Origin: Bacteroidota bacterium
GTDB lineage: Bacteria; Bacteroidota; Bacteroidia; Bacteroidales; UBA10428
Assembly: GCA_016699695.1 (NCBI GenBank)
Contig: CP065006.1
Location: 3,229,435-3,293,434 of the forward strand
Direction: 5' to 3'
DNA: 64,000 nt
Position numbers and translations under genes: made by a program. Positions 18,108 to 57,826 of the stretch are shown here, piece after piece (position 1 is the stretch's first letter; each line of letters begins with the position of its first letter). Below the pieces are notes generated by a model that made no database searches, was not told the origin of the DNA, and worked only from the letters and a program-made list of their open reading frames with translations.

Positions 18108-18836
18108 CTAATAAATGTTGTTAAGAATTAACATCTCTCTGATTTCTTTGTTGCTAAGTGCTTTTACATTAGTAACAATAAAATCGTTGTAGAGAAAATT
18201 TCCAAGTTGGTTGCATTCGCAAATTATGGATTTAAACAACTGCTGAAGCGGGATATTAAGCGGGATTAAGCAAAGGAGAGAGGCAAATTCCCCTTCAAAA
18301 ACTGAATCTTCAAGTTCAGCATTGTATTGCGAGAGAGCATAATTCACTTCTTTATGAATAATCAACTGTTGAATTGGATCAAGACTTTTACCATAAGGAG
18401 TAAAAAGCACAATGAAATAGCGAAGTTTAAGGCCTTTTCCTCCTAAAGCACTTGTTATTAATACTTTACTTTCGTTGAGTAAATCACTCTCTAGGTGTAA
18501 ACGGCTTTGTTGCAAGGCCAGGCAAGCCCAGTGATACAGTTTAATATTGGGTTGTTTCGAATATTTTTCTATTGTTCTATAGGCCTCAATACTGCTAATC
18601 GAGGCTAACTCGATAAGTTTACGCTTTTTTTTGTCCAATGACATTTCGAGGTCAAAGAGATTGTCTTTGTCCCGCAGAATTTCTTCTTCCGATTTGAATT
18701 TGCTTATTTTCCTCGAACACTCGAAATATTCCATCTGAAGGTCTGAGTCGATGTTTTCTTCCAGAATGCTGATGTCCATTTGATCCATTCCCAGGAAATC
18801 ATGCAGGTGGTCATATATGTTTTCATGCGTGCTCAC
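18108..18836 (-). CDS. hypothetical protein
   Basis: 242-aa uninterrupted ORF lying 22 nt upstream of the YkoF-like gene on the same strand. It has no signal peptide and I recognised no motif. Confidence 0.5.
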   Translation of the reverse strand: MSTHENIYDHLHDFLGMDQMDISILEENIDSDLQMEYFECSRKISKFKSEEEILRDKDNLFDLEMSLDKKKRKLIELASISSIEAYRTIEKYSKQPNIKLYHWACLALQQSRLHLESDLLNESKVLITSALGGKGLKLRYFIVLFTPYGKSLDPIQQLIIHKEVNYALSQYNAELEDSVFEGEFASLLCLIPLNIPLQQLFKSIICECNQLGNFLYNDFIVTNVKALSNKEIREMLILNNIY

Positions 18837-19773: not shown

Positions 19774-22548
19774 TTAATTTCTTTTTATCTTGAAGAATAA
19801 AAATCCTGCAAAAAGTATCATCGTAATGCCTCCGAAAATCCACCATGGTGACCGATAAACCGGATCTGCATTACCGATTAAGATGTAAGAAGACCAAAAA
19901 AATGGATGCTTGTATTGCTCCTGAGCGCTTTTTAGAAAATTGAGCTTTGCAAGACGCAAAGCCTCTGATTTGGATTTGCTTTTTAAAAGGTTTTTATAAA
20001 AATAATGCATCAAAGTTTTTCCCGATTCATCTTCTACTCTCCACAAGGTTATAACCAGACTTGGGCATCCGGCATAAAAAAATCCACGCGACAGACTCAT
20101 CACTCCTTCACCATTTTTAAGCTCTCCATGCCCCGAATTGCATGCGCTTAATACGGTGAGCTGTGCTTGCAGTTTTAATGAAAAAAGTTCGTTAGTATTC
20201 AAAAATCCATTGTCGTTGGTCAAGTTATTGTCTGCAAAAACCAATTTCGAAAACAATGGGTTTTTATCGTCGATAAGAGTGTGCATGGCCAAATGCAGAA
20301 TATCATAATTATTGGCAATCTCCAGGAAATTTTCTTTGGTTGCATCTTTTCCTAATGAACTGTTACCTCGTGTAAGTTTGCATACCATCAAAGCCTCTTC
20401 GAGGGCAAACGGCAATGGGAGCAGGTAATTTCGATAGTTTCTCACCTTATATTCATCGGTATTTTTTGCTTGCTGGCTAATTCTGGCAGAATAATCGGGC
20501 GCAACAGACAGGGTCTTATTCCATAATTTCTTACCTCCTCTGCCTAGCATTTCGGAATAAATCGAGGATGAATAGGCATAAGATATGGTATAATTGTAAA
20601 CCAGATAATTGAGGTTGTTAAAAGATTTGATGGGTAAGGCACTAGGTTTATCGACAAGCGCTTCAAAAGGAATATAGGAGATAAGTCCATCCGGAATTAT
20701 TACCAGGTTTTTTTTCAGCTTATCTTGATTCACTTTACTTAAAAGCTGTTGATATAGAAAAAACGCTCTTTTGTAGTACAAGCTATAAGTTGAATGGTTT
20801 TGACCTGAAAAATCAAAATTTTTAAACTCGTTGATATAGTTTCTAAGGCTGTCTTTTAGTGCATTGTTTAACTGGGTGCGATAAAAATATACCTCTTTTC
20901 GATTAATCACAAAGAGAAACAAACTCGTGTCGCTCAGGCTATATTCAAGCAAGGTTGTATTCCTATCGAGAGACGATTGCAGCGAGGGAATTGTAGAAAG
21001 ATTGGTTTTGTATTTTAGTGAGTAATATTCCGGAAAGTCTGAATCGAGTGTGTTTTTGAGCAATTCATATTGTCTGCTGAAGTTAAAGAGGTAGCTTTTC
21101 CACACATCAAGTTTAACCTGATCAGGCTTTAATTGTATGCTTTCTTCATATACTTTCTCGTTGTAAAATGCGATTTCACGTTTCAACCTGCTTTCTTTTT
21201 CTATTAGTGAATCGGGTATTCCTGCAAATTTTTTGGCTTTTTCTTCGCTCAATACTCCCAACAGCACCGAAGATTTACTTTGTTCAGCAAAATAGAATGC
21301 CTCTTCGAGGTATTGATATTGCCCGGTTACTGAGTATAATCTTTCAGCACAATCGAGACCCTTACTGTATACTTGACTTTCTTTGTCAGACAGGTATAGC
21401 TTGCTTTCTACCGATAAATACCCCTGCCTGATTTGGTGAATGACAAGCGCCAGCTCATGAAGGTTTTTGAGTGCAAATTCGAGGTATAAAAAATTCTTTT
21501 TCTGGGCGTACCAGGCAATATAGGTATCAGATAAAGTATTCAGTAAGCTTATTGTGTGAAGCAATGATCGATGCTGAATTTTAAGGGTATCGTTACCATT
21601 TTGATCCTGCAGGTATTTAAGTGCCATTTGATAATATGAAACTGCTTTTTCAAAATCATTCCTCACTTTCCAATAATTGCCATTAAGAACCATTATATCG
21701 AAGTAATACTTTGAATCGATGGACGATTGAATGTAAATAGATTCCGCTGACCTGATCGCTTTAAGAGCCAGTTCAGGCTGGTTAGTGCTCAAGTAATACT
21801 CAGCTAAGTGCTTGTATGAATCGCAATGTAGCTGAGGAGAATGATAATTGTGTTTATCGAATAATAAGAGACTTTGTTGGATAAAAAAGAAACTGCTATC
21901 TGCCATTTTTCGATTTTTAAAGCTTATTGCGGCCGTAATGTAGATATCATGCAGGGTTATGTACTGCTGAAGGTTGTGTCGCGAGAATTCACTAATGGCC
22001 AGGTTACTGAGCCGGGAGGCTTCTGAGTAATTCTTCCGGCTGTTTTCGAGCAATGCAAAGCGATTCAAGGTTTCTATTTTACGAAGGATGGCTTCTGTGG
22101 AATTCAAATTACCAAGTAGCTTCAAAGCCTCATCAAAGTATTCCACAGCCAGCGTAAAGTCACCCTTATGGCGGTATGCATTTCCCATGTTCGAATAAAG
22201 GTTAGCCATAGATAAGGCCGGGGCATCATTTAACATATAAATTTTCCTGGCACGGTTGAAATAATCTAATCCATTGTCGAAATGCCATTGATTTATGCAT
22301 AAAACGCCAAGGTTATTTAAATCGTGGGCAATATTTAAATGATTGGGTGGATAGAGTTGGAGCGATAATTCTAGTGTTTGCTTCAGAAGTGCTTCCGCTG
22401 TTATAAAATCGCCCGTGATAAATGCTTCCACACCTCTGTTGTTAAGAGTTTTGTTAGAATCTTCCAACGCACTAACTGGATTATCAGCTGGCTGACTTTT
22501 TAAACACTCGGCTGCAAAAAGTATCAAAATGATTAAGTGCAATTTCAT
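19774..22548 (-). CDS. exported TPR-repeat CHAT-domain (caspase-like) protease with a C-terminal membrane anchor
   Basis: 924-aa ORF with a signal peptide MKLHLIILILFAAECLKS. About 400 aa are TPR-like repeats (for example NLYSNMGNAYRHKGDFTLAVEYFDEALKL). The C-terminal CHAT domain carries His (ILHLAMHT) and Cys (LTVLSACNSGHG) dyad motifs. A terminal hydrophobic helix WWIFGGITMILFAGFLFF is followed by KIKRN. Confidence 0.85.
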   Translation of the reverse strand: MKLHLIILILFAAECLKSQPADNPVSALEDSNKTLNNRGVEAFITGDFITAEALLKQTLELSLQLYPPNHLNIAHDLNNLGVLCINQWHFDNGLDYFNRARKIYMLNDAPALSMANLYSNMGNAYRHKGDFTLAVEYFDEALKLLGNLNSTEAILRKIETLNRFALLENSRKNYSEASRLSNLAISEFSRHNLQQYITLHDIYITAAISFKNRKMADSSFFFIQQSLLLFDKHNYHSPQLHCDSYKHLAEYYLSTNQPELALKAIRSAESIYIQSSIDSKYYFDIMVLNGNYWKVRNDFEKAVSYYQMALKYLQDQNGNDTLKIQHRSLLHTISLLNTLSDTYIAWYAQKKNFLYLEFALKNLHELALVIHQIRQGYLSVESKLYLSDKESQVYSKGLDCAERLYSVTGQYQYLEEAFYFAEQSKSSVLLGVLSEEKAKKFAGIPDSLIEKESRLKREIAFYNEKVYEESIQLKPDQVKLDVWKSYLFNFSRQYELLKNTLDSDFPEYYSLKYKTNLSTIPSLQSSLDRNTTLLEYSLSDTSLFLFVINRKEVYFYRTQLNNALKDSLRNYINEFKNFDFSGQNHSTYSLYYKRAFFLYQQLLSKVNQDKLKKNLVIIPDGLISYIPFEALVDKPSALPIKSFNNLNYLVYNYTISYAYSSSIYSEMLGRGGKKLWNKTLSVAPDYSARISQQAKNTDEYKVRNYRNYLLPLPFALEEALMVCKLTRGNSSLGKDATKENFLEIANNYDILHLAMHTLIDDKNPLFSKLVFADNNLTNDNGFLNTNELFSLKLQAQLTVLSACNSGHGELKNGEGVMSLSRGFFYAGCPSLVITLWRVEDESGKTLMHYFYKNLLKSKSKSEALRLAKLNFLKSAQEQYKHPFFWSSYILIGNADPVYRSPWWIFGGITMILFAGFLFFKIKRN

Positions 22549-22742
22549 TCTGAAGAAATGAATAGGTAGATGAATAACATGAAAGTACTAAAATTTATTC
22601 AATTTAATATTCTAATAATCAACAAATTAATAAATAGGTGTTGTTTTTTTTTATTTTTTTCATTAGAAACCGGTGACATTTTAGTGTCCAGTGGTACTTA
22701 ATAGTAAAACAATGAATTATTATTCACTTATACATAAAAGCA

Positions 22743-22877
22743 ATGAAACTTTTTAACAAATCTTCAGAAAGAAAAAGCAGCGATTTTAATCTGGCTCAAA
22801 AGCAAGTATTAAGTGTAAAAGAATTAATGACTATACGCGGTGGCGATGAGCACGGTGGTATGATCATAAGAAAATAA
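22743..22877 (+). CDS. 44-aa peptide precursor with a double-glycine (bacteriocin/pheromone-type) leader
   Basis: Hand translation gives MKLFNKSSERKSSDFNLAQKQVLSVKELMTIRGG-DEHGGMIIRK, with stop TAA at 22875..22877. Residues LSVKELMTIRGG match the GG-leader consensus LSxxELxxIxGG at every position. It is too short for the supplied ORF track. Confidence 0.6.
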   Translation: MKLFNKSSERKSSDFNLAQKQVLSVKELMTIRGGDEHGGMIIRK

Positions 22878-22894
22878 TATCCAAATAGGCATTC

Positions 22895-22980
22895 AAATAT
22901 CCCAAAGCGGGTTTAATTTAACCTGGTTTTAACGGCACTCATTCCCTTAGAATATAATGTACCCCGCTTTGGTGATATTT
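22895..22980 (+). repeat. structured element A: 17-bp stem enclosing the conserved 18-mer TGGTTTTAACGGCACTCA
   Basis: The left arm aaatatcccaaagcggg (22895..22911) pairs with the right arm cccgctttgg(t)gatattt (about 22963..22980) with one bulge. The loop carries the 18-mer at 22924..22941. It starts 18 nt after the peptide stop codon. Confidence 0.55.
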
Positions 22981-23126: not shown

Positions 23127-23195
23127 GGGCGGGACAAAGCTCTTTTGGTTTTGACGGCACTCAATATACCTCTCTTATCTTCTTTTGTTCCGCCC
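23127..23195 (+). repeat. structured element B: 13-bp stem enclosing the conserved 18-mer TGGTTTTGACGGCACTCA
   Basis: The left arm gggcgggacaaag (23127..23139) pairs with the right arm cttttgttccgccc (23182..23195), including two G-T wobbles that work only on the plus strand. The 18-mer at 23146..23163 differs from copy A at one base. In both copies the spacer from the 18-mer to the right arm is 20-21 nt (21 nt in A, 20 nt in B). Confidence 0.55.
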
Positions 23196-23378
23196 ACTTT
23201 TTTATACTTCTGAATATAGCATACAGATATAAAAGATACATAGATATTATTGTCTACTGAAACCTTAACCTTCTATTCTTTTACTGGTAACCCCAGGTAA
23301 TACGTGGATATATTTCTTTATTTTGCTCCCGAAAAATTTTTATGGGGTGCATTGGTGAATAACTGAACCCAAATTATT

Positions 23379-25148: not shown

Positions 25149-25160
25149 TTTGTATAATAA

Positions 25161-52317: not shown

Positions 52318-52391
52318 GGACCTGTAGCTTAATTGGATAGAGCATCTGACTACGGATCAGAAGGTTAGGGGTTCGACTCCCTTCAGGTTCA
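52318..52391 (+). tRNA. tRNA-Arg (anticodon ACG)
   Basis: The manual cloverleaf is: acceptor GGACCUG/CAGGUUC, D-arm GCUU-AAUUGGAUA-GAGC, anticodon arm UCUGA-CUACGGA-UCAGA (anticodon ACG), variable AGGUU, T-arm AGGGG-UUCGACU-CCCUU, discriminator A. It is 74 nt with no encoded CCA. Confidence 0.93.
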
Positions 52392-56050: not shown

Positions 56051-57826
56051 ATGAATTCAGAAACTCCCAGGAAAAAAATTAGTCTTTCGGGACTAAAAGA
56101 ACTCTTTAAACTATATCGCTTTATACGGCCCTACCGCAGGGAATATGCCCTTGGCATGCTTCTGCTGCTGATTAGTAGCGCGGCTAGTCTTGCTTTTCCT
56201 AAATTGCTTGGCGATCTGGTGGACATCGGTCAGGCCGGCATGATCAAGGAGCAGATTAACCGAATAGGATTGTTGTTGGTTGTAGTGTTGCTTTTACAGG
56301 CAACGGCTTCTTACTTCAGGATATTATTGTTTGTAAGGGTAACAGAAAAAACCCTCGCCGATTTACGGCGCAAGGTTTATAACCATTTAATTCGTTTACC
56401 GCTTAAATTTTTTCAGGGACGAAGGGTGGGCGAGCTGAATAGTCGCCTATCGGCTGATATTTCCCTGCTTCAGGATGCTATGACCACTACTCTGGCAGAA
56501 TTTATCAGGCAGATTTTGATTATTGTGGGTGGCATAAGCCTGTTGATGTTTACTTCTATGAAGCTTACCCTTTTTATGTTGGCGGTTTTGCCAGTGGTAA
56601 TGGTGCTGGTGATATTTTTTGGACGCTACATACGAAAGTTGTCGAAAGAAGCCCAGAACCAGGTGGCCGAATCGAATGTGGTGGTGGAAGAAACTCTACA
56701 AGGTATTCAATCGGTAAAATCATTTACCAACGAATATCACGAAATGGATCGCTATCGGGAAATAACCGGAAAGATTGCCCAAACCGGTATACAGAACGGA
56801 CGCATGCAGGGTGCTTTTTCGTCCTTCATCATACTAGGTCTCTTCGGGGCCATGGTGGCAGTTATCTGGAAAGGAGCTGACCTCTTAGGAAAAGGAGAAC
56901 TGCAAACCGGAGAGCTGTTTTCGTTTATTATCTATTCAGGCTTTATTGGTGGCACCATTGGTGGCCTGGCAAGTGTATTGGGTCGTGTGCAGAAATTTGT
57001 GGGAGCCACAGAAAATTTACTCGAAATCTTGGATGAAAAGGAAGAAACGGTTCAGGAAAATCTTGCATTGGTTCCCGAGCAAACCATCAAAGGTCGTATA
57101 CGTTTTGATAACCTGCGTTTCGAATACCCTTCGCGCTTAGGTACGGATGTGTTAACTGAAATTAGTTTTTCTGTCGAGCCCAATAACCTTATTGCCCTGG
57201 TAGGGCCCAGTGGTGCCGGCAAATCGACTCTTGTTTCGCTATTGATGCGCCTTTACGAACCCAGTTCGGGCCGTATTCTGTTTGATGGGAAAGAGTCGAC
57301 ACAGTATTCCTTAACGGCATTGCGTTCGCAAATGGCTGTAGTGCCTCAAGATATCTTTTTGTTTGGAGGTACCATTGCCGAAAACATTGCCTATGGACGA
57401 TGGGGAGCCAGCCATGATGAGATTGTAGAGGCTGCTAAGCAGGCTAATGCCTGGCAATTTATTTCGGAAATGAAGGATGGACTGGAAACCCTTGTAGGCG
57501 AGCGGGGTACGCAATTATCCGGAGGTCAGAGGCAACGCATTGCCATTGCCCGTGCTTTGTTGAAAAACCCGCAGATACTCATTCTCGATGAGGCCACCTC
57601 CTCGCTCGATTCTGAATCGGAACGTCTGGTTCAGGAAGCTCTGGAAAAATTGATGCAGGGACGCACTTCTATTGTCATTGCGCACAGGCTGGCAACCATT
57701 CGCAGAGCCGATAATATTATTGTGCTCGACAAAGGTCGCATAGTTGAACAGGGTACCCACGAACACCTCATGAAGCTAGACAAGGGCGTTTACCGAGGTT
57801 TAAGTGAGCTCCAGTTTGCAGTGTAG
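56051..57826 (+). CDS. ABC transporter, fused permease/ATPase (MsbA/multidrug-exporter type)
   Basis: 591-aa ORF with a six-helix type-I exporter TMD. It has Walker A GPSGAGKST, signature LSGGQRQR and Walker B ILILDEATS. There is no N-terminal C39 peptidase domain. Confidence 0.9.
   Translation: MNSETPRKKISLSGLKELFKLYRFIRPYRREYALGMLLLLISSAASLAFPKLLGDLVDIGQAGMIKEQINRIGLLLVVVLLLQATASYFRILLFVRVTEKTLADLRRKVYNHLIRLPLKFFQGRRVGELNSRLSADISLLQDAMTTTLAEFIRQILIIVGGISLLMFTSMKLTLFMLAVLPVVMVLVIFFGRYIRKLSKEAQNQVAESNVVVEETLQGIQSVKSFTNEYHEMDRYREITGKIAQTGIQNGRMQGAFSSFIILGLFGAMVAVIWKGADLLGKGELQTGELFSFIIYSGFIGGTIGGLASVLGRVQKFVGATENLLEILDEKEETVQENLALVPEQTIKGRIRFDNLRFEYPSRLGTDVLTEISFSVEPNNLIALVGPSGAGKSTLVSLLMRLYEPSSGRILFDGKESTQYSLTALRSQMAVVPQDIFLFGGTIAENIAYGRWGASHDEIVEAAKQANAWQFISEMKDGLETLVGERGTQLSGGQRQRIAIARALLKNPQILILDEATSSLDSESERLVQEALEKLMQGRTSIVIAHRLATIRRADNIIVLDKGRIVEQGTHEHLMKLDKGVYRGLSELQFAV

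Follow-up and report, generated by a model that had tools for sequence, protein, structure and literature searches.

Can a 44-codon open reading frame (ORF) with a perfect double-glycine (GG) leader encode a functional peptide when no gene for its export or modification lies nearby, and what would such a peptide do next to a caspase-like CHAT protease and TPR proteins? This question is raised by a locus of a Bacteroidota bacterium (contig CP065006.1), which we analysed within a stretch of 64 kb, referred to here as the window. We find that the ORF is the peptide component of a previously undescribed cassette that is widespread in Bacteroidota, that it matches no curated family, and that the cassette is a candidate system for peptide-based cell-to-cell signalling. 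Throughout, loci of relatives are given L-numbers and public predicted proteins P-numbers.

The availability of the full translation of the ORF (MKLFNKSSERKSSDFNLAQKQVLSVKELMTIRGGDEHGGMIIRK, forward strand) allowed us to assess the leader residue by residue. Residues 23-34 (LSVKELMTIRGG) satisfy all fixed positions of the consensus LSxxELxxIxGG, confirming both the length and the perfect leader reported in a preliminary description of this DNA, and the pre-peptide is laid out as a leader of residues 1-34 followed by the predicted mature peptide DEHGGMIIRK. The strict pattern has a single match in the six-frame translation of the window and did not occur once in 300 order-1 Markov shuffles of it, in which a relaxed pattern ([LIVMF][STN]xxE[LIVM]xx[LIVM]xGG) was found 0.03 times and ELxxIxGG 0.08 times per shuffled window. 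The strict motif is thus not a chance product of AT-rich sequence, which settles the concern that a leader-like match might be no better than expected after shuffling. Neither Pfam nor NCBIfam matches the window peptide, even at E <= 10, and the curated cut-off of GG-peptide models (TIGR04149, TIGR01847, NF033383 for EntF-type induction factors, NF046113 and others, as well as Pfam) was not reached. The public protein collection already contains an identical 44-residue protein, P0001.

Allelic copies of the gene bear on its coding status. Contigs L001-L003, which show synteny with the window at 97.3% identity across 20 kb, encode a 43-residue peptide (P0002) that is 80% identical to that of the window, and a third allele is present in a Bacteroidales metagenome-assembled genome (L004, JAMIIA010000094), the sole close relative returned when the genome collection was scanned with the peptide. 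The frame is intact in all three alleles, the lone length difference being one whole codon, so that the frameshifts or stops that would have spoken against a gene are seen in none of the relatives sharing the locus. Over codons 20-43, which comprise the leader motif and the core, the three pairwise comparisons gave 3-8 synonymous versus 0-1 non-synonymous differences, corresponding to a ratio of non-synonymous to synonymous substitution rates (dN/dS) of 0-0.08; the N-terminal half of the leader is less constrained (dN/dS 0.23-0.60). Between the window and L001, dS of the peptide gene is about 0.85. As dN/dS is this low across diverged alleles, the substitution pattern identifies the ORF as a real translated gene under purifying selection, and the selection check proposed at the outset thus comes out in its favour.

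An exhaustive profile search with hidden Markov models (HMMs) against 1.84 billion protein representatives returned just three further relatives of the peptide, and a word-indexed search one more. By reading the loci of these relatives together with those of homologues of the TPR protein encoded downstream (119 clusters), we arrived at 16 distinct peptides; a gene of this size, with no HMM family and just four related predicted proteins from the exhaustive search, is easily overlooked. All 16 peptides share the form ...[LM]x[IV][RK]GG, with an invariant leader GG, followed by a core of 9-21 residues, with net charges of +1 to -4. Cysteine is absent from the core of every one of them (0/16), and serine and threonine are few in the cores. 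In the nearer relatives the core consists of an acidic or glycine-rich stretch and then GG-I-I-[KR]. The second GG, inside the core, is kept in 12 of the 16 members and missing from the most distant ones, and nothing marks cleavage there. Bacteriocin-type and other GG-peptide models gave scattered weak matches to the 16 members (best E = 0.0016), all under the curated cut-off, among them matches of TIGR04149 to two members and of a CCRG-2 model, for a ribosomally synthesised and post-translationally modified peptide (RiPP), to one. The short, non-cationic cores agree with the initial view that a core of this length does not suit a typical bacteriocin and is closer to a signal, and the identification of a genuine double-glycine-leader pre-peptide is borne out by motif, family and selection alike.

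The peptide gene belongs to a cassette whose order is sigma factor, TPR-CHAT protease, peptide gene(s), membrane TPR protein and histidine kinase. This order is kept in all nine lineages sampled and persists where the membrane TPR protein is down to 29% identical, indicating that the linkage is functional and not accidental. The CHAT and TPR neighbours, suspected from the start to be partners of the peptide, are indeed conserved around it in every lineage sampled. The majority of members are from uncultured Bacteroidales and Bacteroidota. Across lineages the divergently transcribed TPR-CHAT gene encodes 924-1009 residues, the TPR gene about 250 and the histidine kinase gene 280-330, the last of these coming next after the membrane TPR gene in all cassettes. 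No small immunity-like membrane gene and no modification gene is conserved in the cassettes of the nine lineages, no response regulator was called in any locus examined, and PADLOC made no defence-system assignment, with sigma factor, CHAT protein and peptide unmatched and weak generic matches for TPR protein and kinase.

The protein partners are all of the signal-transduction kind. The sigma factor, of the extracytoplasmic function (ECF) type, exceeds the TIGR02937 cut-off of 42.9 bits, Pfam Sigma70_r2 giving a weak match, and has an orthologue at the same position in L005, L006, L129, L131, L132, L133 and L134; it is conserved in all cassettes with a left flank. The TPR-CHAT protein begins with a signal-like hydrophobic segment and ends in a transmembrane (TM) helix at about residues 901-922 with a basic tail, and the dyad formed by His (HLAMHT) and Cys (LS[AS]C) is invariant in nine family members; because of this topology and the invariant dyad, it is an extracytoplasmic, membrane-tethered and probably active caspase-like protease. 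The membrane TPR protein, whose family comprises at least 119 sequence clusters in public data, has a highly conserved helical N-terminus of about 85 residues with the pattern Y..YIERYL.G.MS..E..WFEKEL and without zinc ligands, which we take to recall class I anti-sigma domains minus their zinc ligands. An AlphaFold model of residues 1-88 (predicted local distance difference test score 83) had as its top two Foldseek matches in the PDB the anti-sigma factors RslA (3HUG) and RsiW (5WUQ), with root mean square deviations of 1.3-2.1 A over about 50 residues; with E-values of 3-5, this modelled likeness to anti-sigma factors is suggestive only. A sequence-profile search of the PDB with the membrane TPR protein returned generic TPR domains only.

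The loci of relatives bear on how the peptide would be exported. Seven of the nine lineages (L005, L006, L008, L131, L132, L133 and L134) carry, inside the cassette, an ABC exporter of 728-730 residues with an N-terminal C39 peptidase domain (Pfam Peptidase_C39, 4.5e-39), in which candidate active-site Cys, His and Asp residues are kept, together with an HlyD-family adaptor (HlyD_3, 5.7e-16; TIGR01843, 1.4e-28). The preliminary description had noted that C39-ABC, radical-SAM and lanthionine enzymes are absent nearby and had supposed that processing may be non-canonical. The first statement holds for this window, the second is not supported: with a C39-ABC exporter and an HlyD adaptor in seven of nine cassette lineages, processing is, as judged from these loci, canonical at the level of the family. 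In L131 and L133, the exporter pair sits between the histidine kinase gene and a large PAS kinase gene on the opposite strand, a junction that is empty in the window, L001, L004 and L129. Since the pair stands in these two relatives exactly where the two kinase genes abut here, comparison of the loci identifies the absence as a clean two-gene loss in this clade. The sole related protein of the window is an ABC transporter (56051-57826) that aligns to exporter residues 155-725 and is without the C39 domain. Leader and core remain strongly constrained in the exporter-less clade, from which we infer that it is served by an unlinked peptidase-containing ABC transporter (PCAT). A precedent for an unlinked PCAT exists in the pneumococcus, where ComAB and BlpAB export one and the same set of GG peptides (PMC7018657).

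Table 1. Coordinates of the cassette genes and associated elements in the window.
Feature	Position	Strand	Evidence and remarks
ECF-type sigma factor, 190 aa	19188..19760	+	NCBIfam TIGR02937 sigma70-ECF, 47.8 bits; convergent with the CHAT gene
TPR-CHAT caspase-like protease, 924 aa	19774..22548	-	Pfam CHAT 2.1e-59 and TPR repeats; divergent from the peptide gene
Promoter-like motif GGTGACA-N14-GGTACTTA	22672..22700	+	43 nt before the ATG; recurrent in relatives
GG-leader pre-peptide gene, 44 aa	22743..22877	+	ATG to TAA translation; motif statistics; dN/dS; 16-member alignment
Hairpin element 1	22901..22972	+	Stem CCCAAAGCGGG/CCCCGCTTTGG; encloses TGGTTTTAACGGCACTCA at 22924-22941
Hairpin element 2, terminator-like	23127..23195	+	Stem GGGCGGGACAAAG/TTTGTTCCGCCC; encloses TGGTTTTGACGGCACTCA at 23146-23163; then T-run
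Small hairpin CTGGTAACCCCAGGTAATACG	23284..23304	+	Precedes the membrane TPR gene by about 75 nt; invariant in window, L001 and L004
Single-pass membrane TPR protein, 253 aa	23379..24140	+	N-terminal helical domain, TM at about 88-106, periplasmic 3-TPR domain
Soluble histidine kinase, 305 aa	24231..25148	+	HisKA and HATPase_c; no TM segment
Exporter-pair junction (empty here)	25149..25160		Kinase and PAS-kinase genes abut (25148/25161); L131 and L133 carry C39-ABC and HlyD

The peptide genes are also set apart by cis-elements (Table 1). A copy of the promoter-like motif precedes each copy of the peptide gene in the window, L001, L004, L005, L006 (three copies), L008, L058, L091, L129 and L131, and a variant does so in L133; elsewhere in those loci the motif was not found at up to two mismatches. 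A distance of 21 bp separates the starts of its half-sites, GGTGAC and GGTAC, and both a direct-repeat site for a regulator and an ECF-type -35/-10 pair would fit. A simple scan for sigma-70 promoters and terminators was uninformative.

Downstream of the gene, the hairpin elements share a general form with a stem of 12-16 bp, a loop of about 50 nt and a T-run after the stem. The 5' part of the loop reads TGGTTTTRAnGGCACTCA, with a conserved 18-mer (TGGTTTTRACGGCACTCA), and compensatory changes affect six of 13 stem pairs among 10 copies; the stem of hairpin element 1 in L004 shows one such change, from A-T to T-A. Elements of the type of hairpin element 2 close the peptide genes in L005, L006, L008, L058, L091, L129 and L131, and the internal copies of the tandem array in L006 are without a 3' arm. 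Going by this architecture, the outer stem and T-run look like an intrinsic terminator. The long-stem hairpin is also found in L004 and L133. Rfam holds no family for the hairpin element, and searches at both gathering and E-value thresholds produced no credible match to the ORF or the 500 nt downstream of it; a match to RAGATH-9 (E = 0.36) was discarded as far under the gathering score. The sole match in the window at gathering score is a tRNA gene (52318-52391, forward strand; RF00005, 66.3 bits).

Other explanations of this region were tried and rejected. The spacer between the hairpins is not a decayed second peptide gene, its similarity to the unit of promoter and ORF scoring 21 against a shuffle mean of 18.9; nor is the loop motif a sigma-54 promoter (TGGCAC/CGGCAC), there being no conserved -12 GC among copies, or a Bacteroidetes TTTG/TAnnTTTG promoter, there being no conserved -7 box. 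When the 18-nt hairpin motif was used to scan metagenomes, 120 stretches were returned, of which L058 and L091 are the only true relatives and the rest chance matches. The small hairpin ahead of the membrane TPR gene has counterparts of the form CTGG...CCAGG(T/A)TA at the same place in L129, L131 and L058, and may serve to regulate the sensor genes.

Some relatives contain more than one peptide gene. L006 has three tandem paralogues, and in both L006 (10001-10760) and L007 each of three tandem peptide genes is preceded by a promoter motif of its own. In these two loci an ATG further upstream, in the same frame, would add 13 codons (MKAQKLSHLTF...). As the conserved start of the family is the methionine of MKLF, this upstream stretch is probably a conserved 5' untranslated region and not coding. 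L058 carries, on its minus strand at about 210-370, a second peptide-gene unit in which promoter motif and hairpin are intact and the frame ends after 13 codons (MKRQNLLHLKLKK*), an apparent pseudogene copy. To the left of the cassette, a 242-residue protein without a Pfam or NCBIfam match (18108-18836, reverse strand) is encoded beside genes with a Thiamine_BP domain and DUF3276 in most left-flanked relatives. FeoAB lies between its gene and the sigma gene in L005, L006, L131 and L133, placing it outside the cassette.

Comparison of the window with L001 revealed a further feature of the locus. A block at 22143-22940 (9400-10200 in L001) has 67-86% nucleotide identity and sharp edges, identity elsewhere being 97-100%, and runs from the peptide gene through the divergent promoter region into TPR-CHAT, of which it takes in the first ~100 residues. 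Protein identity is 60-66% inside the block and 94-100% in the rest. By its outline the block resembles an allele exchanged as a unit, in which peptide gene and protease N-terminus stay together. The mature cores of the two alleles differ at one residue, and the co-variation between window and L001 therefore lies mostly in the leader.

We consider the chances about even that the peptide is an exported autoinducer, sensed by periplasmic TPR domains and acting via CHAT proteolysis of an anti-sigma factor, and not a toxin. In such a pathway, a PCAT, in this genome an unlinked one, would recognise leader residues 1-34, cut after Gly34 and export the unmodified 10-residue DEHGGMIIRK. Having reached the periplasm, the peptide would be bound by the TPR domain of the anti-sigma-like protein, by that of TPR-CHAT, or by both, whereupon the TPR-CHAT protease would clip the anti-sigma-like protein and free the ECF sigma factor. 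The freed sigma factor would then transcribe from the promoter-like motif in front of the peptide genes, creating positive feedback, and the hairpin and T-run after the peptide gene or array would limit read-through into the sensor genes. What suggests signalling over killing, at the level of gene content and sequence, is the combination of short non-cationic cores, the lack of a conserved immunity-like or modification gene, and partners that are all signal-transduction proteins. As to the wider proposition that Bacteroidota practise peptide quorum sensing of this kind, with a PCAT-exported 9-21-mer, periplasmic TPR reading, TPR-CHAT activation, anti-sigma removal and sigma release, we put it forward tentatively and regard it as more doubtful than probable.

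Several observations weigh against the autoinducer pathway. Close relatives keep the core motif GG-I-I-[KR] instead of diversifying it, unlike many pheromone systems, and a tblastn search with the L005 exporter found no C39 domain or PCAT in the window. No copy of the promoter motif was found ahead of the sigma gene, so that the autoregulation usual for ECF sigma factors is unseen, and the 21-bp spacing of its half-sites fits the direct repeat of a response regulator equally well. The anti-sigma assignment is made from a sequence pattern and Foldseek matches that are not significant, the membrane TPR protein matches no anti-sigma model in Pfam or NCBIfam, and the genes of the sigma factor and the anti-sigma-like protein are not neighbours. 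Finally, the histidine kinase of the cassette is without a partner regulator and without a place in the model.

An alternative role for the peptide would be that of a very short, unmodified bacteriocin or microcin-like toxin, exported by PCAT and HlyD, with sigma factor, kinase and protease merely regulating its production. GG leader, PCAT and HlyD do make up the standard export module of class II bacteriocins and microcins, tandem paralogous peptide genes such as the three of L006 are frequent in bacteriocin loci, and a few members weakly match bacteriocin-like GG-peptide models, albeit always below the curated cut-off. However, predicted mature peptides of 9-21 residues, without cysteine and with charges of +1 to -4, speak against a toxin, no cassette has a conserved small immunity-like membrane gene, and in two lineages the exporter has been lost from the locus with the peptide still under strong purifying selection. 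We therefore hold a toxin to be unlikely. It is unlikely to a similar degree that the exported peptide serves the periplasmic TPR-CHAT protease alone, be it as substrate, activator or inhibitor (for instance as a pseudo-substrate that gates protease activity according to envelope conditions), and carries no information on cell density. In favour of such a role, peptide and CHAT genes are invariably divergent neighbours, and the peptide gene shares one sharply bounded block with the first ~100 residues of TPR-CHAT, which suggests joint exchange; against it, the allelic cores differ at a single residue, with co-variation chiefly in the leader, and no core-like sequence was noticed in the linker of the membrane TPR protein when it was read through, no formal search being made.

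A RiPP precursor with modifying enzymes encoded elsewhere seems more improbable still. GG leaders are common among RiPP precursors, TIGR04149 matches two members and the CCRG-2 model one, each weakly, and a small radical-SAM gene lies 3-4 kb off in L132 and L134, but none of the other seven lineages has that gene, the cassette contains no conserved modification enzyme, the cores are without cysteine and poor in serine and threonine, and the weak matches, below cut-off, are explicable by similarity of the leader. That the frame arose by chance in AT-rich intergenic DNA, or is a leader ORF without function or acting in cis (attenuation), might have been suggested by its small size, the G+C content of the genome (39.6%) and the lack of a Pfam or NCBIfam match. 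This reading is effectively refuted by the substitution pattern, with its near absence of non-synonymous change over leader motif and core, and by the conservation of the peptide alongside a PCAT in distant relatives, in addition to the failure of 300 shuffles to produce the strict motif.

By its leader and, at the family level, its exporter, the peptide is to be classed, as far as sequence comparison goes, within the broad group of GG-leader PCAT substrates, whose N-terminal leaders measure about 15-35 residues and are cut off right behind the GG as export proceeds, by exporters that usually have an HlyD-type accessory protein. Pheromones of this group include those of the ComC/BlpC type with their ComAB/BlpAB exporters in Streptococcus (reviewed in PMC7595303; for the behaviour of the PCATs, see PMC7018657). 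The likeness to ComC/BlpC extends to a small pre-peptide with the LSxxELxxIxGG leader, a short unmodified mature peptide (predicted here), a C39-ABC exporter and accessory protein in the locus (here in relatives), a nearby histidine kinase and a special promoter for the peptide gene (here a promoter-like motif). The streptococcal loci autoinduce through a dedicated repeat-type element in front of the peptide gene; the motif described here is likewise private to the peptide genes, and its half-site spacing suits a direct repeat as well as an ECF-type -35/-10 pair. The host here, in contrast, is a Gram-negative member of Bacteroidota, the kinase is soluble instead of a polytopic membrane receptor, and the peptide is accompanied by an ECF sigma factor, by a membrane TPR protein of anti-sigma-like character and by a periplasmic protease of the TPR-CHAT type. 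Furthermore, at 9-21 residues the mature peptides are shorter, and they are acidic or neutral, whereas the streptococcal pheromones, the competence-stimulating peptide and BlpC, are cationic. The arrangement that defines ComCDE and BlpCHR, a membrane kinase receptor and a LytTR response regulator beside the peptide gene, is not what we find here.

For the steps of peptide sensing, CHAT cleavage and sigma release, the nearest precedent is DdvS/DdvA of Myxococcus, in which the transmembrane anti-sigma factor carries, in fusion, a periplasmic TPR-CHAT domain that is proposed to act as site-1 protease, with release of the sigma factor to follow, the activating signal being unknown (PMC11506125). 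Both systems combine an ECF sigma factor, a membrane-anchored periplasmic TPR-CHAT with a His-Cys dyad and a single-pass protein with a helical cytoplasmic N-terminus. They differ in that the anti-sigma-like protein and TPR-CHAT are here separate polypeptides, split and not fused, that the N-terminal domain has no zinc ligands, that the cassette carries its own candidate signal, the GG peptide, together with an exporter, and that no CBASS or CRISPR genes are attached. The RRNPP systems of Firmicutes (Rap/NprR/PlcR/PrgX/Rgg) likewise encode, beside a TPR protein, a small pre-peptide with a short C-terminal peptide as its product; their receptors, however, are cytoplasmic and their peptides re-imported, whereas the TPR domains here are periplasmic, and their pre-peptides mostly have Sec signals and not GG leaders. 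Class II bacteriocins and microcins are characterised by a mature peptide of about 25 residues or more that is cationic, amphipathic or glycine-rich and by an adjacent immunity gene, from which the present family departs in size (9-21 residues), charge (+1 to -4) and immunity gene. Bacteroidetocins (PMC6671954), which are GG-leader toxins, come from the same phylum and share the type of leader and the class of exporter; in contrast, the cores described here have 9-21 residues, are non-cationic and without cysteine, and are encoded in a signal-transduction cassette.

In the full-text literature searched, we found no paper that links a GG peptide with genes for CHAT, ECF sigma and anti-sigma proteins. 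The export of pheromones with GG leaders is a textbook trait of Gram-positive bacteria, and we know of no established peptide autoinducer in Bacteroidota. What the cassette brings together is peptide export of the canonical kind with an ECF sigma factor, a membrane protein of anti-sigma-like character and a TPR-CHAT protease outside the cytoplasm. The system is not rare, as its membrane TPR component defines at least 119 clusters. The candidate ligand is encoded at the locus itself, has 9-21 residues and is easily synthesised, making the question directly testable. For DdvA, the one TPR-CHAT anti-sigma factor of bacteria to have been characterised, no activating signal is known (PMC11506125). 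If the signalling role is correct, the peptide would be the first identified ligand for a TPR-CHAT/ECF-sigma pathway and, as far as is known and within the literature searched, the cassette would be the first peptide autoinducer system in Bacteroidota.

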